From Candidatus Altiarchaeota archaeon (GTDB lineage Archaea > Altiarchaeota > Altiarchaeia > IMC4 > SCGC-AAA252-I15), in assembly GCA_041306075.1 (NCBI GenBank), contig JBFYKH010000007.1, positions 8,821-72,820 on the forward strand: a stretch of DNA of 64,000 nucleotides, given 5' to 3'. The stretch's first letter is position 1, and the number at the start of each line of letters is the position of its first letter. The notes under the pieces were generated by a model. The model had not been told where the DNA came from. It ran no database searches and was given only the letters and a program-made list of their open reading frames with translations. The position numbers and the translations under genes were made by a program. Positions 3,422-60,508 of this stretch are shown piece by piece.

Positions 3422-4693
3422 ATGGCTGACAAACCGCACATGAACCTTGTGTTCATAGGGCACGTGGACCACGGGAAGTCGACGCTCGTCGGCAGGCTCA
3501 TGTACGAGCTCGGCGAGGTCACAGAGCAGCAGATGAAGAACCTCAAGGAAGAGGCTGCGAAGTCCGGCAAGGCGACGTTCGAGTACGCCTGGGTCATGGA
3601 CTCCTTGAAAGAGGAGCGCGAACGCGGAGTCACAATCGACATCGCGCACAAGAAATTCCAGACTCAGAAGAAGTACTTCACCATCATCGACGCCCCAGGC
3701 CACAGGGACTTCGTGAAGAACATGATAACCGGCGCCTCCCAGGCAGACGCGGCCGTCCTGGTCGTCGACGTGCAGAACGGCGTGCAGCCGCAGACGAAGG
3801 AGCACGCATTCCTGTCCAAGACCCTCGGCCTGAAGCAGATGATAATCGCCGTCAACAAGATGGACGCCGTCAAATACGAGGAGGCAAAATACAACAAATG
3901 CGTTGACGACGTCAAAAGCCTGCTGAAGAGCATCGGATACGACGTCAGCAAGATACCCTTCATACCGACCTCCGCATACCAGGGGGACAACCTGAAGACC
4001 AAGAGCGCGAACACCCCCTACTACAAGGGCAACCCGCTCCTGACGGAACTCGACAACCTAGAGGCCCCGGCCAAGCAGACCGACAAGCCCCTGAGGCTGC
4101 CGGTACAGGACGTCTACACCATCACCGGCGTCGGGACAGTCCCCGTAGGCCGCGTGGAGACGGGCGTCATGAAGCCGAACGACAAGATAATCTTCATGCC
4201 GGCGAACGTCACCGGCGAAGTGAAGACCGTCGAGATGCACCACGAGCAGCTGCCGAAGGCAGAGCCCGGAGACAACATCGGATTCAACGTCCGCGGAATA
4301 GGCAAGAACGACGTCAAACGCGGAGACGTGGTCGGACTAGTCTCGAACCCGCCGACGGTGGCGGAGGAGTTCACGGCGAACATCGTCGTCCTCCAGCACC
4401 CGAGCGCGATAACCGTGGGCTACACGCCGGTCTTCCACATACACACCGCCCAGGTCGCAATGGAGTTCATAGAACTCATTAAGACCCTGGACCCGAAGAC
4501 AGGCCAAGTCAAACAGGAGAAGCCCGAATTCCTGAAGGCAGGCGACGTCGCGGTCGTAAGAATCAGGCCCACAAGGCCGACCGTCGTCGAAGCAGCCAAG
4601 GAATTCCCGCCCCTGGGCCGATTCGCAATCCGCGACATGGGCCAGACAGTGGCTGCAGGAATGGTCATAGAGGTGAAGAAGAAGGCGATGTGA
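3422..4693 (+). CDS. tuf: Elongation factor 1-alpha (aEF-1A / EF-Tu)
   Basis: 423 aa; [21 protein letters not shown] motifs; GGAGG RBS upstream. Confidence 0.95.
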
Positions 4694-4733
4694 ACAACAT
4701 CCCTTCCAAACACCCTTTTTTGAAGGCTATAAG

Positions 4734-5042
4734 ATGGAGAAAGCACGAATCATCCTCATAGGAAAGGAAAACAGGATACTGGACGACGTATGCGGCCAGA
4801 TAGTCGAGGTCGCCCAGAAGACCGGGACCAAATTCAGCGGCCCCATACCGATGCCGACCAAGAAGATGAGGGTGACATGCCGTAAGGCCACAAGCGGCGA
4901 CGGCACGGAGACATGGGACCGGTGGGACATGCGCATACACAAGCGCATCATCGACCTCAACGCAAACGAAAGGAGCCTGAGGCAGATAATGCGCATACAG
5001 GTCCCCGACGGCGTGCACATCGAAATCGAGCTGACAAAATAA
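4734..5042 (+). CDS. rps10: 30S ribosomal protein S10 (uS10)
   Basis: 102 aa; MEKARIILIG...IRIHKRIIDL...; canonical position after tuf. Confidence 0.9.
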   Translation: MEKARIILIGKENRILDDVCGQIVEVAQKTGTKFSGPIPMPTKKMRVTCRKATSGDGTETWDRWDMRIHKRIIDLNANERSLRQIMRIQVPDGVHIEIELTK

Positions 5043-5161
5043 AGGATAAACGACGGGGTACGAGGAACCCTATCCTCCAATACCCCGCCGAACCATTCTT
5101 TTAATACAGTAACCCCTTATTATCAACCCTAGACGCCCAACAAACGCTCTAGGACATAAAA

Positions 5162-5220
5162 AGCTCCCCTGGCGTAGACGCCCCAGATGCTTATGCATCG
5201 GGCGCTCCAGCCGGGGAGCT
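5162..5220. other. Palindromic tRNA-like / cloverleaf-like structured element (not a canonical tRNA)
   Basis: AGCTCCCC...GGGGAGCT 8-bp outer stem enclosing two hairpins (GGCG-TAGA-CGCC and CCCAGATGC-TTAT-GCATCGGG); shares the GCTCCC 5' end with the adjacent tRNA-Glu; too short (59 nt) and no T-arm. Confidence 0.3.
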
Positions 5221-5235
5221 GGTAGCATATAATAC

Positions 5236-5310
5236 GCTCCCGTAGTGTAGACCGGCCTATCATTCCGGACTTTCGATCCGGTGACTCGGGTTCAAATCCC
5301 GACGGGAGCA
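5236..5310 (+). tRNA. tRNA-Glu (anticodon UUC)
   Basis: Acceptor GCTCCCG/CGGGAGC, anticodon arm CCGGA-CTTTCGA-TCCGG (UUC), T-arm TCGGG-TTCAAAT-CCCGA, discriminator A; 75 nt. Confidence 0.85.
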
Positions 5311-6028
5311 AGACCCATTAAGGTTAAGAAAAAGAGCAAAGATTATATAGAGGGTTGTCGCTCTACATACCCGATGGAGCAGGCGATATACCCGAACAAG
5401 ACAGGCTTCACAGACTTTAAGACTAGCTTCTTCCAGGACCCCGCGATAACACCAGGCAACCGCGACACCGTCAAACAATTCCTAAAGCTGCACAGTAGCC
5501 TGGGAGTCAAAGAACGCAGGCAGCGTAACCGACCCAGTAAACTAAAGACCATCCTCCAAGACAATGTATTCTCCGGACAAGAGACTCGCTGGAGGGCGTT
5601 CATCTCGTCCTTATCCCACACTGCAAAAATTATTCCTTTATCTCATCCAGTTCTTTCACGAGCATGTGGAACGAACTCTCATCGAACCATAATCTGATGG
5701 CATTTATGCGTGGGGGGGGGGTGTGTCCGTCCCCATCTCATCGCATGATTCCTCCTCGTCCTTGGTTACTACATGGAAGAAGTCAGTGATTAGCGTGTGG
5801 ACTTTACCTGTGAGGTCGTAAGTTTCAACCTCAACCTCTTCGCCGCTTTGTCGTAACTCTATGCCCCTAATGCTTTTCATCTCTCCCCCCAGCTAGGTAT
5901 GCCCTTGACAGCGTATAAACACATGGATTTTAGGACATGAAGACCAATGTTCAAAATCCTAGTCGACCTAGTCGTTGAATGTGCTCGTTGCGTCTAGGCT
6001 GGTGCGCACCTTTTGAACGCTGGGAGAT

Positions 6029-6355
6029 ATGCATAAGGGCTTATTTACCTTAACCCTAATGGATATTATGGCAAATGCGAGAATCAACTACCTTATAGAC
6101 GCCCTACTTGGGTTGAGTTTCTTCATTACTGCTGCGACAAGCGTAATCATATTCCTTTTCCTGCCTTCAGGGGTCCGCCAGGGAGGCTACCAGGAGTTTA
6201 TGGGCATAACCAAAAGCACATATGGCCTTGTGCACACATACGTCGGCCTATTGATGATAGGCCTCTCGCTCGTACATCTTGTGTTGCACTTTGATTGGAT
6301 AGTGTGCATGACTAAAAACCTTTTCAAGAAAACCGGCGAATGTGCTGTAGAGTAA
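6029..6355 (+). CDS. Small polytopic membrane protein (DUF4405-like?)
   Basis: 108 aa, 2-3 hydrophobic helices; lies in the low-GC patch downstream of tRNA-Glu. Confidence 0.45.
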   Translation: MHKGLFTLTLMDIMANARINYLIDALLGLSFFITAATSVIIFLFLPSGVRQGGYQEFMGITKSTYGLVHTYVGLLMIGLSLVHLVLHFDWIVCMTKNLFKKTGECAVE

Positions 6356-6433
6356 TTCCCTGTCGGATTACGTGTTCAAATGCGGGGTTTTTTTTTTAAG
6401 CATGTGGCCCCATACTATTAATGAGGTGTTTTT

Positions 6434-7360
6434 ATGAAACTTATTGCCACAGTTGCTCTGTTGTTTTGTCTTGCGTCCGTCGCATGTGCCATCGGCCCCA
6501 TTGAGGGTCAGGGAACAGGTCAAGGGATTTTGATTCAAGAGGAGACTCAGAACGAGGGCGAAAGCCAGAACCTGACAGTCCAGCAGCAGACTGCTGCCGG
6601 CGCTGGGCAGGGCTCAGGCCAGGGCAGCATGGTCCAGCAGGAGACTCAGAACGCCGGCGAAGGCCAGAATCTGGCCGCCCAGCAGCAGACTGGTGAAGGA
6701 AAAGGCCAGGGCGCAAGTCAAGGCTCCGGTCAAGGCAATGCTGGCGCGGGTCAGGGGGCAGGCCAGTCCAGCATGGTCCAGCAGGAGACTCAGAACGCCG
6801 GCGAAGGCCAGAATCTGGCCGTCAAGCAACAGAGTGGTCAGGGCCAATCCAAGTCTGAGCAGATGGCGCAGGTGAAGCAGACGGTACGGGAGAAGAAGCA
6901 ACAACTGGACCGGGAAGTAGCTGGGATGAACAACAACCGGGACAAGCAGAAGGTGTTCCAGAACCAGAATCAGGTCAGGCTAGCAGTTCATTCCTTATTG
7001 GCGCTAGAAAACTTGACCGGCGGCATAGGCAAGCAGGTTTCACAGATTGCCCGGGAATTCGACAACTCCATACAATCAACGCTCAGGTCCGAGGAGAAGG
7101 TGCAAACTCGCGCAGGCGTGTCCAGATTCTTCTTTGGAGGGGATGAAGAATCCGCAGACGAGATATTGGGTCAGGTTACCCGCAACCAGGCGAGGATACA
7201 GCAGTTGAACCAATTGATGCTGGAGGGCGGCTTAGACGAGGATGTGAAGGCCATGGTGCAGGAGCAGATACGGATAATGCAGCAGGAGCAAGAGCGCCTC
7301 CGGCTGATGGCCCAACAGGAAAAAAATAGCAAAGGCCTCTTTGGCTGGCTGTGGAAATAG
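6434..7360 (+). CDS. Secreted repeat protein (signal peptide, Q/G-rich tandem repeats, C-terminal coiled coil)
   Basis: 308 aa; N-terminal MKLIATVALLFCLASVACA; three copies of ...SMVQQETQNAGEGQNLAAQQQTG... (about 80-bp tandem DNA repeats at 6600-6860). Confidence 0.55.
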   Translation: MKLIATVALLFCLASVACAIGPIEGQGTGQGILIQEETQNEGESQNLTVQQQTAAGAGQGSGQGSMVQQETQNAGEGQNLAAQQQTGEGKGQGASQGSGQGNAGAGQGAGQSSMVQQETQNAGEGQNLAVKQQSGQGQSKSEQMAQVKQTVREKKQQLDREVAGMNNNRDKQKVFQNQNQVRLAVHSLLALENLTGGIGKQVSQIAREFDNSIQSTLRSEEKVQTRAGVSRFFFGGDEESADEILGQVTRNQARIQQLNQLMLEGGLDEDVKAMVQEQIRIMQQEQERLRLMAQQEKNSKGLFGWLWK

Positions 7361-7543
7361 GCCGGTAAACAAGGCCTTAATGTTGGGGCATTGGGGAAGA
7401 ACCTTGGGATTGGGGGTATCGGAAGGGTTATTCATCCGATGACTGTGGGGAAGTATGTGCTCTGAGGAACTGCACTCCGAAAGGTGTTCCCGAAGGGAGT
7501 TATTCCCCTAGTAGGAGTTGATACAAAATAAACCCGGCTGAAG

Positions 7544-8077
7544 CTAGGAGGATACACTTAAATACTGGTATTTGTCGTAGCCGTTTTTCTCCCCGGACGG
7601 CCTGCATGCGCCGTTAACGCACCCGTAGGGGCAGTTGACCATCGCGTATCTGGCTTGGTTGCGCCAGCAGTACCATTTTTTGAGCAAGGCGGAGTTTACG
7701 CACTTGTCCATGTTGCCGTCCACCGTCCCCCGTGTCTGGGTGTTCCTGTACTGGTCTGTGGCTGTGCATTCGTATCCGCGCGCCCAATTGTTAGCGGTCT
7801 CCAGCGTGCATTCGCCCGCCAGGCATCCAAGCGGGCACTTGCGGACTTTCGATGCGGCGAACCCGTTTTCGCAGGACCACTTCCTCACGTGCGTGGAGTT
7901 CACGCACGAGTCATAATGTCTTCCATACGCATCCGTGGCATAGCCCCAGACGCTGTACTCCAAGGCGCTGCCGGTCGAGCTGCACACCCGGGTAATAATC
8001 GACGTGGAGTAGGACATGGCGGTGCCCGACATCAAGGCAGCCATCAAAACAGCCGCACAGACGCTGAACCGCCCCAT
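7544..8077 (-). CDS. Secreted Cys-rich protein with two repeated Cys-rich modules
   Basis: 177 aa; signal peptide; two modules ending ...CP(L/Y)GC(L/V)(A/N)G(E/A)C; same motif as the C-terminus of the 11580..12635 protein. Confidence 0.55.
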   Translation of the reverse strand: MGRFSVCAAVLMAALMSGTAMSYSTSIITRVCSSTGSALEYSVWGYATDAYGRHYDSCVNSTHVRKWSCENGFAASKVRKCPLGCLAGECTLETANNWARGYECTATDQYRNTQTRGTVDGNMDKCVNSALLKKWYCWRNQARYAMVNCPYGCVNGACRPSGEKNGYDKYQYLSVSS

Positions 8078-35339: not shown

Positions 35340-35616
35340 GATCCACCCCCGGCTTTTGGCCGGGGGTGGGGGGTGGTTGGCTGAATTACCACATCCTTGT
35401 GGATGTGATTGTAACCTCCGCAGCCCCATATTGCGGAGGTGATGGCGTTCGTCCCATCATGGAGTGATGCGATTTTTTTTGGCGAGCCTGATCCACCCCC
35501 GGCTTTTGGCCGGGGGTGGGGGGTGGTTGGCTGAATTACCACATCCTTGTGGATGTGATTGTGAGCCAGATCCACCCCCGGCTTTTGGCCGGGGGTGGGG
35601 GGTGGTTGGGGTGATG
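35340..35616. repeat. Tandem G-rich double-hairpin repeat (2 full copies of about 73 bp plus 1 partial)
   Basis: GATCCACCCCCGGCTTTTGGCCGGGGGTGGGGGGTGGTTGGCTGAATTACCACATCCTTGTGGATGTGATTGT at 35340 and 35490 (150-bp period); partial copy at 35569; each unit has hairpins CACCCCCGGC/GCCGGGGGTG and CACATCC/GGATGTG. Confidence 0.7.
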
Positions 35617-55227: not shown

Positions 55228-55234
55228 CTGGAAG

Positions 55235-55414
55235 ATGATAAGCAAGCTCGTCACCGTAGCGGCCGGGGCGGCGCTCATATACCACCTCATCACCGAATAC
55301 CTGATACCGGAATTCTACGAATACCGCGAAATCATGTGGGCGGCCTTCGCCGGATACCTCCTCATGGGCGCATACTACCTTACCCGCCCCGAAAGGAAAT
55401 CCACGTTCTGGTAG
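55235..55414 (+). CDS. Small two-helix membrane protein
   Basis: 59 aa from the ATG at 55235: MISKLVTVAAGAALIYHLITEYLIPEFYEYREIMWAAFAGYLLMGAYYLTRP... Confidence 0.35.
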   Translation: MISKLVTVAAGAALIYHLITEYLIPEFYEYREIMWAAFAGYLLMGAYYLTRPERKSTFW

Positions 55415-55438
55415 GGCAGTCCTCTACCTATCGCCGAT

Positions 55439-56530
55439 TCACCCGCCCAACACCTCCCTCTGTAGGGGCTTCCGTATCCGGTCCGCCAGGGTCCCGAGGA
55501 ATCTCCGCACCCTCTCCGCCTTCGGGACGTACTCATAGTCCCCGTCAACGAAGTCGCCGGCTGCGGCCGACCTGACCAACGCATCCTTCGCCTGCCCCGA
55601 TGGGGTCTTGGCCTGGACCAGCTCATCGCTCACCGCAGCCTCCCTGAGCCCGTCGATGAGATGATACCTCCTCAAATCGGAGATGTACCTGACCGTGTCC
55701 GGCGCCCAGAGGCTCAGCCTCTTCAGCATCTCGAACTCGTAGTCCGAACCGTAGAAATGAGGCACGTGGCCGCTCAACTCCCGCTCCGTGTCCGGGTGAA
55801 ACCTATGCCCCCACTTGTACTGGGGGAACAGCCCCCTTATGACCGTGTTGTACGTCAGCATGCTCCCCTTGAAGAGCGACCTGTTCTCGGGGCCGACCGA
55901 GGGATTGTCCTCGACGAACCTGCCGTCCGTGTAATCCAGCCTTATGACCCCCCTGAGCATGTCCCCGGCGCCTCCGTAGGGGTCTATAACCTCCCCGGTG
56001 TTGAGGAGCCCGAAGTAGTCCTGCGTGTACTGGGACGCGTTAGACTCCTTGCGGAAGACCCATCTGCCGTCACCCATCCTACACAGCCAGTGGGGGGAGC
56101 TGAAATGTATCATGTCCGCGAAAGGCCGCCCATTGTAGGCTCCGTCAAAGTGCCTGCGCATGTCCCTGACGCTCCCCTTGTAGACGTCAATGTGCATCCC
56201 GCCCCGGGGCTCGCCGGTGGAGTTCCCGACCGCGATGTCGATGTCCCCCAACAGGTCCTCCCTGCCGAGCAAAAGGTCCCTCACGCTGCTGCCGGCGACC
56301 GCGACGGACCAGCCCTTAATCCTCCTGGACTGGAGCAGGAAATCCCGCACAAGCGACTTAGGCAGCTCCCCCTCGACGTCGACCCTCAGGTCGCACGGCC
56401 TCGCACCCCCGTTCAAGGCCGCCACGACCCTGTCAGCGAAGGGATTCACGGGGAAGGACTTCACCTCGAACCTGGCGTTCCCATCCTCCAAGGTCAGGCC
56501 CTGCGGGGCGTGATACGCAAGCTTCGCCAT
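55439..56530 (-). CDS. Class-II-like nucleotidyltransferase (poly(A) polymerase/CCA-enzyme head domain) protein
   Basis: 363 aa; AGSSVRDLLLGREDLLGDIDIAVGNS matches the GGxVRDxLLGx(n)DxDI polA_pol_head motif. Confidence 0.5.
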   Translation of the reverse strand: MAKLAYHAPQGLTLEDGNARFEVKSFPVNPFADRVVAALNGGARPCDLRVDVEGELPKSLVRDFLLQSRRIKGWSVAVAGSSVRDLLLGREDLLGDIDIAVGNSTGEPRGGMHIDVYKGSVRDMRRHFDGAYNGRPFADMIHFSSPHWLCRMGDGRWVFRKESNASQYTQDYFGLLNTGEVIDPYGGAGDMLRGVIRLDYTDGRFVEDNPSVGPENRSLFKGSMLTYNTVIRGLFPQYKWGHRFHPDTERELSGHVPHFYGSDYEFEMLKRLSLWAPDTVRYISDLRRYHLIDGLREAAVSDELVQAKTPSGQAKDALVRSAAAGDFVDGDYEYVPKAERVRRFLGTLADRIRKPLQREVLGG

Positions 56531-56669
56531 TCAAACGCCCCCCGAAACTGCGCATGAGAAAACAGGACGGCGCCGGAGGCAGAATGCCATAATCATCTTT
56601 ATCCGCAAGGATAAAAGAACAAAGCCTCACGGAAAAGCACAACCCCCTCCAACCCCAACGGATTATCGT

Positions 56670-57032
56670 CTAACCCGCCACGTACCTGTACGTGAAATCC
56701 GCCGGGAAACCGTACGCGGCCTCGAAGCTGCCGTGCGTCTGGCTGAAATACACCGCGAACAGCAAGAGGGCCACGAGGAGGGCGAAAGCCACAATCATCG
56801 CAGCCTTAAGCATCGGGCTCGTCAGCTTCACCAGCTTGTCCTTCAGGAACCGGTGCCAGGCAAGGTAGGCGAACAGGCTGAGGAAAACCCAATTCACTGC
56901 CAACAAAGCGACCGCCACGCCCAACTCCACTCCGTCAACCCTGAGCTCCAACATAAAAAACCAGACCCCGTCAACATATGCGCAACACCAAATATAAACC
57001 GAGCGGTTACGAAACCGTTTCCCGCAGGTCAA
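56670..57032 (-). CDS. Small membrane protein (hypothetical)
   Basis: 120 aa; 3 TM helices. Confidence 0.35.
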   Translation of the reverse strand: MTCGKRFRNRSVYIWCCAYVDGVWFFMLELRVDGVELGVAVALLAVNWVFLSLFAYLAWHRFLKDKLVKLTSPMLKAAMIVAFALLVALLLFAVYFSQTHGSFEAAYGFPADFTYRYVAG

Positions 57033-57068
57033 CGGCGGCCGCCTGGCAGGCCCCCGTAAATTATAATA

Positions 57069-57365
57069 ATGCTTACGCCTATTGGGTTACGTCTTATGGC
57101 GGGCTTGGAGGACCTTGAGCGGCGCGTCGGACTCATCGAGGACAGGAACAGGCGGGTCGAGCTCGACAAGGCATGGGAGACCAGCCTCTCGCGCAAAGTC
57201 ATCGTCGCGGCATTGACTTACGCCTGCATCGTCCTGTTCTTTGTCTTCGCCGGCCTGCCGAACCCCCTTTACAACTCGATCGTGCCGACCGCGGCATTCC
57301 TCCTGTCGACGCTGACCCTCCCCCACCTCAAATCCGCCTGGATAAAAAACCAAAAATACAGTTGA
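57069..57365 (+). CDS. Small membrane protein (hypothetical)
   Basis: 98 aa; coiled N-terminus plus 2 TM helices. Confidence 0.35.
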   Translation: MLTPIGLRLMAGLEDLERRVGLIEDRNRRVELDKAWETSLSRKVIVAALTYACIVLFFVFAGLPNPLYNSIVPTAAFLLSTLTLPHLKSAWIKNQKYS

Positions 57366-57394
57366 CCCCCCTACGGGGGCCTCGGCACTATGGC

Positions 57395-57934
57395 TCAGCG
57401 CATCTTCGCATCCAGCTCGTCGTCGCGCTTCTCGGCCAACGCGAGCGCATCCCTCAACAGAGCCTCCTTCGAGTAGGCGCCGCTCTTCTTCAGCGACTCG
57501 GCGATGCCGGAAATATCCGCGGCCTCGAGTATGACGCTGTCGTAGTCCTGGTTGCGCGCCCAAGCCTCCACCTGCAATCTCACGACGTCGGCCTCGAGGG
57601 CGCTCAGCCCCGGCTGGACGTCCTCAAGGAATGGCTCGAACGCTATCCTCCCGTGTGCAATACCCGGCGTCCAGAATACCCCGGACTTCAGGAGCTTCCC
57701 TACGCCAGCCTCGACCTTGGCCTCCTCCCCCAGCCCCGCAGCCTCAGACGGCAAGAGGACGCCGTGCCCCAGCCTCTCCCGACCACGCGGCGCAGATAAG
57801 CCTACGTGCCCGGCCTCCAAAGCCTCCAAAGCCGAAACCAACGACGGCCCACCGCCACCGCTAACCACTTCAACCGACATGATTAACAATCGACGTCCGA
57901 ATATTAATGGCCAACAAAACACATAGAAACACAC
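57395..57934 (-). CDS. Hypothetical protein
   Basis: 179-aa ORF; the start may be the internal MSVEVVSGGG. Confidence 0.35.
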   Translation of the reverse strand: MCFYVFCWPLIFGRRLLIMSVEVVSGGGGPSLVSALEALEAGHVGLSAPRGRERLGHGVLLPSEAAGLGEEAKVEAGVGKLLKSGVFWTPGIAHGRIAFEPFLEDVQPGLSALEADVVRLQVEAWARNQDYDSVILEAADISGIAESLKKSGAYSKEALLRDALALAEKRDDELDAKMR

Positions 57935-57968
57935 GCGGGTTTATTTTTCCCTAATCTAATAGACGACT

Positions 57969-58319
57969 GTGGCTTTGTGGGATTGGTTCTTTTCTGATGA
58001 GGCTGGTGGCCGGGAGGTCTGGGTGAAGGTATGCCCTGAATGCCACAGCACGGACGTGACCAGCCGGGGGGGAATATCCAGGACTGCGCTCAGCCCCAAC
58101 TGGATATGCCTAAACTGCGGCTTCCAGAGCGGCTCATTCCCAGAGTTCCTATCAGAAGACGTGAAAAAAGTCGCCCTGCCGGAAAGCGAATCACGGCGGC
58201 GATTCATACCATCAAGAATGCCGTTGACTGCCGACGGCCCTAAGAAGACAACTGTGGCAAAACGCCCTCTACTGTTCATAATCCTCCTAATCATCCTACT
58301 ATCGCTGCTTCTACGATAA
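57969..58319 (+). CDS. Zinc-ribbon protein with C-terminal TM anchor
   Basis: 116 aa; CPECHS...CLNCG; C-terminal LLFIILLIILLSLLL. Confidence 0.45.
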   Translation: MALWDWFFSDEAGGREVWVKVCPECHSTDVTSRGGISRTALSPNWICLNCGFQSGSFPEFLSEDVKKVALPESESRRRFIPSRMPLTADGPKKTTVAKRPLLFIILLIILLSLLLR

Positions 58320-58371
58320 GACGAGATTCTCCATCTCCCAAAAGCCCTGCTTCAAGAAGATAGGATGCGGC

Positions 58372-58520
58372 GGCCCCATCGAGATTTTTCAAAAAAGCGC
58401 TTCGCGCTTTTTACATCTCGAGGGATTATCCAGACGACTTTGCTTCGGATAGATACGTTATGGTTCCATCGAGATTTTTCAAAAAAGTCCCGCGGGACTT
58501 TTTACACCTCGATGGGTTCG
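58372..58520. repeat. Two tandem nested-hairpin units carrying copies of the tRNA-Ile 3' end (att-scar-like)
   Basis: GGCCCCATCGAGATTTTTCAAAAAAGCGCTTCGCGCTTTTTACATCTCGAGGG (58372) and GGTTCCATCGAGATTTTTCAAAAAAGTCCCGCGGGACTTTTTACACCTCGATGGG (58462); both share CCATCGAGATTT with the tRNA-Ile 3' end (58553); inner stems differ but stay paired. Confidence 0.6.
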
Positions 58521-58552
58521 TGATACTCCCTCTCTGTCGGATTCAGACGATA

Positions 58553-58627
58553 TGGTCCCATCGAGATTTGAACTCGAGACCTTCCGATTATCAGTCGGAC
58601 GCTCTAACCAGTCTGAGCCATGGGACC
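58553..58627 (-). tRNA. tRNA-Ile (anticodon GAU)
   Basis: Minus strand: GGTCCCA-TG-GCTC-AGACTGGTTA-GAGC-G-TCCGA-CTGATAA-TCGGA-AGGTC-TCGAG-TTCAAAT-CTCGA-TGGGACC-A; perfect cloverleaf. Confidence 0.85.
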
Positions 58628-58832
58628 GTATGTTGTTTCCCTTCTTTACTCTTCCCACCATTTGGGTGGTGCATCATTCCCCTGGTCTTTCTTTTTCGCC
58701 AGCGCTTCACAGCCGAGCCTTTGAGGCTCGGGTGTGTGGCTGAAACCCAGGTTTCAGCCCCATTCTTTCGCAAAGAAAAGGGCTGCGGCCCAACCAATCT
58801 AAGCAAAGGGACCGTTAAAACGCTTTTTTAGG

Positions 58833-60473: not shown

Positions 60474-60508
60474 GCGGTTTTTTATCTGCCTCTGCCTTAG
60501 TCTATTCA

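Follow-up and report, generated by a model that had tools for sequence, protein, structure and literature searches.

An inherited array of degenerate tRNA-Ile 3′ copies that may serve as two-way terminators in an altiarchaeal genome

Bacterial-type modules in which a hairpin stands between an A-tract and a T-tract are two-way terminators, and archaeal RNA polymerase is known to terminate at oligo-T. Integrative elements also have gene-less derivatives flanked by attachment (att) sites, the cis-mobilizable elements (CIMEs), which accrete in tandem and are known from Streptococcus. Here, we analyze two tandem palindromic units, each carrying a near-copy of the tRNA-Ile 3′ end, that lie immediately downstream of the tRNA-Ile(GAU) gene in a metagenome-assembled genome (MAG) of a Candidatus Altiarchaeota archaeon (assembly GCA_041306075.1). 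Our base data are a single 64-kb stretch of one 87.6-kb contig of this MAG (JBFYKH010000007.1, positions 8,821 to 72,820), hereafter the window. On balance, we favor the reading that the units are degenerate copies of the 3′ part of tRNA-Ile, arranged head to tail, vertically inherited and kept as two-way terminators. They are neither fresh scars bounding an island nor a new class of RNA.

Partial tRNA copies are the usual footprint of integrating elements and are well documented in archaea (PMC9897764), where the att core can be as short as 14 bp, as in SNJ2 (PMC5861418). Like archaeal repeats of this type, among them those of SNJ2 and of PYG1 from Pyrococcus yayanosii (44-bp repeats), the array presents near-identical tRNA 3′ repeats downstream of an intact gene with variable gene content adjoining, and one relative has an att-like junction within the tRNA. 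Unlike them, the units lie 75 nt apart instead of 9–23 kb, have neither an element nor an integrase between or beside them, are inherited across lineages and conserved, and have a hairpin with A and T runs in place of the T-loop. Short tandem segments with att-like cores beside a tRNA also recall CIME-like remnants, although here the segments are ~75 nt long, no cognate element is known and mobility has not been observed. As in a tRNA pseudogene, collinear remnants of tRNA-Ile persist in the distal unit (anticodon arm, T-stem, discriminator and the 3′ strand of the acceptor); however, this unit is far too decayed for a tRNA covariance model, has a lengthened T-stem and is conserved instead of drifting. 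With bidirectional terminators the units share a GC stem between an A-run and a T-run, a U-run after the hairpin on both strands, a site between convergent or tandem transcription units, and a stem that covaries between fixed A/T tracts. They differ in that the hairpin is nested in a second, longer inverted repeat apparently derived from the T-arm.

Relatives of the locus were collected with a metagenome scan using the last 25 nt of tRNA-Ile, which returned four JGI contigs, and by protein look-ups, which added L034, conspecific with L030, and an NCBI MAG that is more distant, L039; L031 is contig Ga0315294_10022392. The relatives amount to five or six lineages that are not independent. The gene and the array, both read on the minus strand, are laid out as follows.

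58553..58627, minus strand: functional tRNA-Ile(GAU), called by ARAGORN and Rfam RF00005; its last 17 nt, AAATCTCGATGGGACCA (58553-58569), are the reference copy of the repeat
58517..58552, minus strand: spacer Y0, 36 nt, from the tRNA to the proximal unit; similarity to the tRNA body not significant
58461..58516, minus strand: proximal unit, with inverted repeats I4 and I12; orthologous units in L031, L033 and (truncated) L030/L034
58426..58460, minus strand: spacer Y1, 35 nt, with repeat D2 and an alignment to the tRNA; homologous to L039
58371..58425, minus strand: distal unit, of an older type, with inverted repeats I8 and I10; aligns to L039

The tRNA gene was proposed at 58553..58627 (minus strand) in the original prediction, which was made from the sequence alone, and ARAGORN and Rfam (RF00005, 71.9 bits) agree on it. 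In its own sense the gene terminates in ...GTTCAAATCTCGATGGGACCA, and CCA is not encoded. The two units of ~90 bp with near-copies of the tRNA 3′ end were likewise recovered: on the minus strand, the 17-mer AAATCTCGATGGGACCA occurs within the tRNA (58553-58569, 0 mismatches), at 58461-58477 (1 mismatch) and at 58371-58387 (2 mismatches), and its only other match in the window at ≤3 mismatches is the 3′ end of tRNA-Glu. These copies follow one another at 90 and 92 nt (repeats D1 and D2), with 73–75 nt between them. The 12-mer CCATCGAGATTT is present exactly three times in the window (58376, 58466 and 58558) versus 0.27 expected, a count that 0 of 100 shuffles reach. Similarity to the tRNA extends 16 nt past its 3′ end into the trailer (D2, 58445-58477 versus 58537-58569, 85% over 33 nt), and thus the repeat unit is "tRNA tail plus trailer" and not a bare core. 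Tandem Repeats Finder did not report the array, presumably because the 90-nt period is mostly too diverged. Elsewhere in the 64-kb window we found no further copy of either unit arm. A comparable trailer is absent from tRNA-Glu (5236-5310), and no integrase was found beside that gene.

Read in the tRNA sense, the proximal unit (58516-58461) is CCCATCGAGGT-GT-AAAAAGTCCCG/CGGGACTTTTT-TGAAAA-ATCTCGATGGAACCA. It comprises a 5′ arm (CCCATCGAGGT, 58506-58516), an inner hairpin (AAAAAGTCCCG/CGGGACTTTTT, 58482-58503), a T6 run on the minus strand (A6 on the plus strand, 58481-58486) and a 3′ arm that is a near-copy of the tRNA 3′ end (AAATCTCGATGGAACCA, 58461-58477). The distal unit (58425-58371), TCCCTCGAGAT-GT-AAAAAGCGC-GAA-GCGCTTTTT-TGAAAA-ATCTCGATGGGGCCG, is built in the same way from a 5′ arm (TCCCTCGAGAT, 58415-58425), an inner hairpin (AAAAAGCGC-GAA-GCGCTTTTT, 58392-58412), a T6 run (A6 on the plus strand, 58391-58396) and a 3′ arm (AAATCTCGATGGGGCCG, 58371-58387), again a near-copy of the tRNA 3′ end. 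Arm-proximal sequence is near-identical in the two units (GAGRTGTAAAAAG ... CTTTTTTGAAAAATCTCGATGG). The spacer between them, Y1, starts with TAACGTATCTATCCGA, a diverged copy of the tRNA trailer, and holds a decayed remnant of the anticodon arm, CGTCTGGATAATC, at 58424-58436, which reaches 2 nt into the distal 5′ arm. Each unit had been described as starting with the tail copy and closing with its inverse; the tail copy is there, but in the tRNA sense it ends each unit instead of starting it.

The inner hairpins and inverse copies that had been described were all found. The inverse copies are I8 (58376-58385/58415-58424) and I12 (58466-58473/58508-58515), and the inner hairpins are I10 (58392-58400/58404-58412) and I4 (58482-58492/58493-58503), the latter a perfect 22-bp palindrome with no loop. 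The units have folding energies of -25.7 and -24.3 kcal/mol (z = -5.7 and -5.0; 0 of 200 shuffles as stable), and, over the folds considered as terminators, z is about -5 to -7. Hairpins consisting of at least four A, a perfect stem and at least four T are found in the 64 kb only in those two units and in none of 50 shuffles. The proximal inner stem (58482-58503; GUCCC/GGGAC) matches acceptor-stem pairs 2-6 of tRNA-Ile.

Homologous units stand at the same place in L031, L033, L030/L034 and L039. In L033, the tRNA is followed by a 35-nt spacer, one full unit (CCCATCGAGAT-GT-AAAAAGTC-CGCA-GACTTTTT-TGATAAA-ATCTCGATGGGACC), ~95 nt and then a homologue of the window gene at 57395-57880. In L031, tRNA nt 38-76 are present as a perfect copy, behind which stand a 36-nt spacer, a single full unit and a convergent 647-aa open reading frame (ORF); the 3′ arm of its unit matches the tRNA tail at 17/17 positions, and the copies in L031 and L033 are exact or 16/17. 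In L030/L034, the tRNA is followed by a 36-nt spacer, the 5′ arm and an A5/GCC-CACA-GGC/T4 hairpin. Here the 3′ arm is absent, which is best read as a deletion beginning in the T-run, and the hairpin runs directly into the promoter region of the same downstream gene as in L033. L039 is arranged differently: 146 nt unrelated to the window's first unit separate the tRNA from the next tail copy, GTTCAACTTGATGGGACCA, after which come a spacer and the palindrome CCCTCGAGAT-GTAAAA-ATCTCGAGGG without an inner hairpin, exactly as a deletion between the two A5 runs would leave it. L032 has the promoter directly against the tRNA, and all that it shows of the array is a faint trace, CCCTCGAGAT...AAATCTC, at 73 nt downstream.

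When the window sequence from the second 17-mer up to and including the second 5′ arm is aligned to L039, the score is 77, which 0 of 300 shuffles reach; this makes the distal unit the ancient one of the two. Units of the proximal type are common to the window, L030/L034, L031 and L033. Since homologous units occupy the same place across lineages, the array was inherited and is not recent in the window's lineage. As judged from these comparisons, it is old and has descended vertically in an Altiarchaeota-like clade. For a neighboring EF-Tu-domain protein, the best relatives that carry a name come from 'Candidatus Altiarchaeota' MAGs and are ≤62% identical to it. L001, which is the closest contig, breaks off ~700 bp before the tRNA is reached, L035 ends within the zinc-ribbon gene described below, and L040-L042 carry no tRNA.

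The units are better conserved than the DNA around them. Between the window and L033, identity is 89% in the unit, 58% in the spacer and 65% in adjacent coding DNA; between the window and L031, it is 82% in the unit, 75% in the spacer and 68% in the zinc-ribbon coding DNA; and between L031 and L033, it is 85.5% in the unit and 64% in the spacer. Y0 has a fixed length of 35–36 nt in four lineages, with a sequence identity of 58–81%. MAFFT alignments of the units placed the inner stems out of register; changes in base pairs were taken from the fold of each unit. Next to the invariant G-C of the inner stem, three units have U-A and two have C-G; at the following pair, four have C-G and one has G-C. 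All five stems pair, in a sample too small for statistics. In the outer stem, an A of the 5′ arm is lost in the second unit of the window and in L039, its partner T is lost in L039 only, and one A-to-G change retains a G-U pair. Together, conservation above the level of coding DNA and compensatory changes in the inner stem argue that the units were inherited and maintained and are not recent scars.

The descent of the distal unit can be followed through Y1, in which the pieces of the tRNA body that persist differ between lineages (window, CGTCTG-GATAATC; L039, CGTCCGA-ATAGTC; L033, CGTCCGA-G-TAATC). The consensus of the three lineages is collinear with tRNA nt 26-42 (CGTCCGA[CTG]ATAATC) and then with the T-stem strand CCTCGAG (p ~0.005). 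Two controls, tRNA-Glu and the reversed tRNA, score lower, and the individual Y1 alignments fall on the same region of the tRNA. Because Y1 is collinear with the anticodon arm, the distal unit is shown, at the level of sequence, to be a degenerate partial copy of tRNA-Ile, spanning roughly nt 20-76. Its 5′ arm corresponds to the variable loop and one T-stem strand (AGGTC-TCGAG becoming TCCC-TCGAG) and its 3′ arm to the other T-stem strand and the acceptor 3′ strand. The outer stem would thus be the former 5-bp T-stem, TCGAG/CTCGA, lengthened to 10–11 bp, and the former T-loop would have been replaced by a GC hairpin flanked by A5-6 and T5-6. The palindromic organization, called unusual in the original prediction, is real but has a simple source, since the T-arm was already an inverted repeat; this is shown for the distal unit and extended by likeness to the proximal one. 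Lengthening of the T-stem could reflect selection or templated correction of quasi-palindromes, a process known from general mutational studies. Since the proximal unit shares its arm-proximal sequence with the distal unit, it is a probable paralogue, and from this likeness we infer its tRNA ancestry. If so, a leftover tRNA fragment was not eroded but reshaped, its T-arm becoming a long palindrome with a candidate two-way stop that has long been kept.

What keeps the units intact? A role in transcription termination is suggested by their relation to the convergent gene and to the T-runs at the locus.

58385-58389, 58408-58412, 58475-58479 and 58499-58503, plus strand: four T5 runs, candidate stop signals for transcription of the convergent ORF (T-run count)
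58320..58370, minus strand: possible extra decayed repeat between the distal unit and the ORF stop; weak (D4, 73% over 15 nt, not significant alone)
57969..58319, plus strand: convergent zinc-ribbon/transmembrane ORF of 116 aa; the DNA is missing at that position in L030/L034 and L033

Each unit carries one T6 run in the sense of the tRNA and two T5 runs in the antisense, in a window of ~60% G+C. Of the window's runs of at least five T, 33 on the plus strand and 34 on the minus strand, the units account for four and two, respectively. About 50 nt separate the distal unit from the stop codon of the zinc-ribbon ORF, and the first T5 after that stop codon is inside the distal unit. All lineages have the module placed so that it separates the tRNA from the transcription unit that comes next. 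That transcription unit converges on the tRNA in the window and L031 and runs in the same direction as the tRNA in L030, L033 and L039; the neighbor is the stop codon of the 647-aa ORF in L031 and the promoter of the next gene in L030 and L033. A present role in two-way termination and insulation of the tRNA gene is likely on these grounds. The module of A-run, hairpin and T-run would provide oligo-T stops on both strands and insulate the strongly transcribed tRNA from its neighbor, and such a role as a stop signal would keep the units intact. The paired changes in the inner stem across five stems and the T-runs on both strands, both confirmed here, fit the bidirectional terminator that the original prediction offered as an alternative to integration scars. 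The array would then be a simple case in which to test for termination of the hairpin type, bare T-runs being what this archaeon uses otherwise.

Several observations weigh against this reading, both in its account of function and in its account of descent. Genes of the window otherwise end with bare T-runs and no hairpins, and plain T5-6 runs follow stop codons directly elsewhere (for example, at 60478 and 61447), in line with the oligo-T termination of archaeal RNA polymerase. There is thus no evident need for the hairpin. Nor is the outer stem kept intact throughout: L031 carries two changes that leave bases unpaired, and its fold does not surpass those of shuffles (z = -1.1), while the second unit of the window is bulged. 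In 4/4 full units, the 10 nt of the 3′ arm that form the stem, ATCTCGATGG, do not vary, even though the tRNA-identical ACC(A) that follows has no pairing partner; this hints at a constraint on identity to the tRNA, through gene conversion, a recombination site or sequence recognition, instead of or besides pairing. As for descent, the proximal spacer resembles the tRNA body to the eye, but the similarity falls short of significance (p 0.01–0.28), and the Rfam tRNA model RF00005 at E ≤ 10 matched only the real tRNA and neither unit.

How might the copies have arisen? An unlikely, though the next best, explanation is that they are neutral scars of serial integration, in which the 17-mers are the att cores of since-deleted elements and the hairpins are functionless leftovers of att arms. 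Direct repeats of a tRNA 3′ end are a classic product of integration (PMC9897764), and a core of 14 bp is known (PMC5861418). In L031, the perfect copy of nt 38-76 is fused to unrelated DNA; unrelated DNA separates the tRNA from the next copy in L039 (146 nt) and the window (75 nt); gene content past the array varies among lineages; and a partial copy of the tRNA 5′ end lies upstream of the gene as well. To this extent, the att-type repeats of the original prediction are borne out, by the partial tRNA 3′ copies, the L031 junction and the varying gene content, but neither an integrase nor an attP was found. Serial scars bounding an island are not what the locus presents: no foreign DNA stands in the mere 75 nt from one copy to the next, and the variable genes lie beyond the last copy and are not bracketed by detectable copies. 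Conservation of the units as a tRNA-Ile trailer across the clade, which the original prediction had named as a finding that would speak against integration scars, is seen in L031, L033, L030/L034 and L039. Units shared across lineages, more conserved than coding DNA and with compensatory changes are unlike neutral scars. For annotators, the locus carries the caution that tRNA-end repeats need not mark the boundary of a current island.

Searches for the elements themselves were negative within their scope. Among the flanking genes of the window, L030 and L031, Pfam and PHROGs gave no integrase, mobile-element gene or viral hallmark. No genuine attP-like match was present in IMG/VR, phage or plasmid records, a weak negative, as these hold few elements of the clade. 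In viral contigs, a 20-mer of the tRNA 3′ end had 0 matches and a 16-mer had 3, none with a tRNA or unit (the one in L037 lies in a structural gene); a unit 20-mer had a single match, in a coding region, and a search with the zinc-ribbon protein gave no relatives. In blastn against phages and plasmids, only the tRNA body was matched.

The junction in L031 deserves separate mention. At positions 1-87 of that contig, the perfect copy of nt 38-76 follows 50 nt unlike any related locus, and ARAGORN finds no tRNA there. The contig ends 50 nt beyond the junction, and a complete element is not seen. The copy could mark the point where an integrated element ends distally, or it could be the 3′ exon of a gene with an intron. 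Identity begins at the canonical 37/38 position, as expected of an intron-containing or split tRNA, but pairing of the bulge-helix-bulge type with the anticodon loop was not found by hand in the upstream 50 nt.

It is also possible, with a probability somewhat lower again, that the array is of purely local origin, slippage or unequal crossing-over having duplicated "tRNA nt ~20-76 plus ~15-nt trailer", with the extra copies decaying except where they serve as terminators. The copies abut head to tail and the trailer was duplicated with them (D2, 85% over 33 nt). Copy number, at half a unit in L030, one in L031 and L033 and two in the window, varies as recombination between direct repeats predicts, and the loss of the hairpin in L039 corresponds to a deletion between its two A5 runs. 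Copies of the tRNA 5′ end upstream of the gene track the D-loop variants of their lineages (ACA in L033 and ATT in L034), that is, conversion or duplication is ongoing. However, partial tRNA duplications without mobile elements are rarely reported, and neither the junction with unrelated DNA in L031 nor the 146-nt filler in L039 is explained in this way. Within the favored reading, we lean slightly toward a tRNA-targeting integrative element as the source of the first partial copy, with local tandem duplication almost as likely; local duplication followed by unequal crossing-over fits the head-to-tail layout and the copy-number differences equally well. Whichever gave rise to it, copy number and completeness would subsequently change through recombination, slippage and deletion between repeats.

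The invariance of the 3′ arm raises another possibility, which we regard as improbable: that the pseudo-T-arm palindromes are conserved mimics of tRNA-Ile, acting as a decoy or secondary attachment site that diverts tRNA-Ile-targeting recombinases from the essential gene, as a folded-strand recombination site, or as an acceptor/T-arm minihelix that tRNA-processing enzymes recognize, for processing or marking read-through transcripts. Such roles would account for the closeness of the 3′ arm to the tRNA, unpaired bases included. Beyond ATCTCGATGG, ACC(A) pairs with nothing and is identical to the tRNA in L031 (ACCA) and L033 (ACC), with one or two changes in the window units. Slightly more improbable is a specific mimicry signal, either an acceptor/T-arm minihelix for RNase P, tRNase Z or the CCA-adding enzyme, or a DNA decoy or folded-strand recombination site. 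For such a signal speak the outer stem, by construction the coaxial acceptor/T-stem duplex of tRNA-Ile; the invariance of ATCTCGATGG in the four full units, with the tRNA-like ACC(A) of L031 and L033; conservation of the units above coding DNA; and, in the window only (not L030 or L033), a predicted fold of the precursor ending at T6 in which the trailer arm pairs with the tRNA's own 3′ strand. However, the first three acceptor pairs are formed in no unit (GAA lies opposite ACC), the T6 in the loop should stop most transcripts before the 3′ arm, L030/L034 have no 3′ arm and L039 has no inner hairpin. An integron-type R′/R′′ consensus, a nearby recombinase and an Rfam match were not found. Should the identity of the 3′ arm nonetheless reflect recognition by a recombinase or a tRNA enzyme, the array would be considerably more interesting.

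Assembly artefact or chance similarity can hardly be credited: the window does come from a MAG, and close to this locus a number of related assemblies break off, but independent JGI, ENA and NCBI assemblies have homologous units at the same place, and shuffles exclude chance.

Other candidate identities for the units were tried and rejected. A dispersed palindromic repeat, such as a miniature inverted-repeat transposable element or a repetitive extragenic palindrome, is at odds with the lack of an extra copy in 64 kb, and a scan for TCGAGATTTTTCAAAAAAG in the representative genomes of 185,579 species (the source genome not among them) gave 27 single chance matches in unrelated bacteria and archaea, none with an arm or hairpin. 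An integron attC would have R′′/R′ core sites (RYYYAAC ... GTTRRRY) and an IntI-type integrase nearby; GTTRRRY was not seen at the unit ends, and the flanks yielded no integrase. For origin recognition boxes/origins and dif/Xer sites, the motifs, spacing or copy number that define them are absent. A primer-binding site would, as the complement of a mature 3′ end, require TGG for CCA, which is absent. In Rfam 15, only the tRNA passes, and the sub-threshold matches of the units reach 13–23 bits versus thresholds of 55–70.

The other side of the tRNA gene also carries a partial copy, together with a palindrome of a different kind.

58792..58816, minus strand: decayed copy of the tRNA 5′ end (AAC plus GGTCCCtTtGCTtAGAtTGGTT), 186 nt upstream of the tRNA, beside promoter-like TATA elements
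58763-58782 and 58699-58707, minus strand: T/A-rich palindrome CCCTTTTCTTT-GCG-AAAGAAAAG, which follows the 5′ pseudo-copy in all lineages; in the window its arm is split between AAAGAA and AAG

The 5′ copy consists of nt 1-22/28 plus 3 nt of leader and lies 130–186 nt upstream of the gene (152 nt in L033, ~130 nt in L039 and at ~9694-9718 in L034). It is perfect over 22–24 nt in L033 and L034, has 1 mismatch in its first 22 nt (in the D-loop) in L039 and 4 mismatches in the window, and is missing from L032. The copies in L033 and L034 mirror their own D-loop variants (ACA versus ATT), which suggests gene conversion or repeated duplication on the 5′ side too. The T/A-rich palindrome has the look of another kind of two-way stop, or of a module repeated at this locus; L039 has a similar palindrome behind the real tRNA too, with the D-arm fragment TTAGAGC in front of it. 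A 55-nt insertion (58708-58762) with two adjacent perfect hairpins, GGCTGAAACC/GGTTTCAGCC and CACAGCCGAGCCT/AGGCTCGGGTGTG, splits the palindrome of the window. This insertion, possibly a miniature one, is single-copy in the window, absent from L034 by alignment and seemingly absent, by eye, from L033 and L039. Copies at both ends of the gene, variable neighbors and contig breaks mark tRNA-Ile as a recombination-prone locus in the clade.

The genes between the array and a conserved PAS/TFE/Rpp14 block differ in every lineage and are mostly without family assignment; the stretches compared were 55230-58320 of the window, 3060-6270 of L030, 220-4240 of L031 and 8230-8740 of L039. The zinc-ribbon gene adjoins the array in the window, and its homologue is ~2.7 kb from the tRNA fragment in L031. 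A 120-aa membrane protein of the window (56670-57032) is the immediate neighbor of the array in L039. Also in the variable region, a 363-aa protein (55439-56530, minus strand) has weak, sub-threshold similarity to the head domain of poly(A) polymerase/tRNA nucleotidyltransferase (Pfam E 5e-4; PHROG E 3e-3). Several related assemblies break near the tRNA-Ile locus. Downstream of tRNA-Glu, the region 4000-8000 has a GC content of 0.54 versus ~0.60 and small ORFs that are mostly without a family, with DUF4405 membrane and Q/G-rich repeat proteins; no integrase was found there. Finally, Tandem Repeats Finder identified three short GGGGGTG doublets within 250 nt, at 35362-35376, 35512-35526 and 35591-35605.

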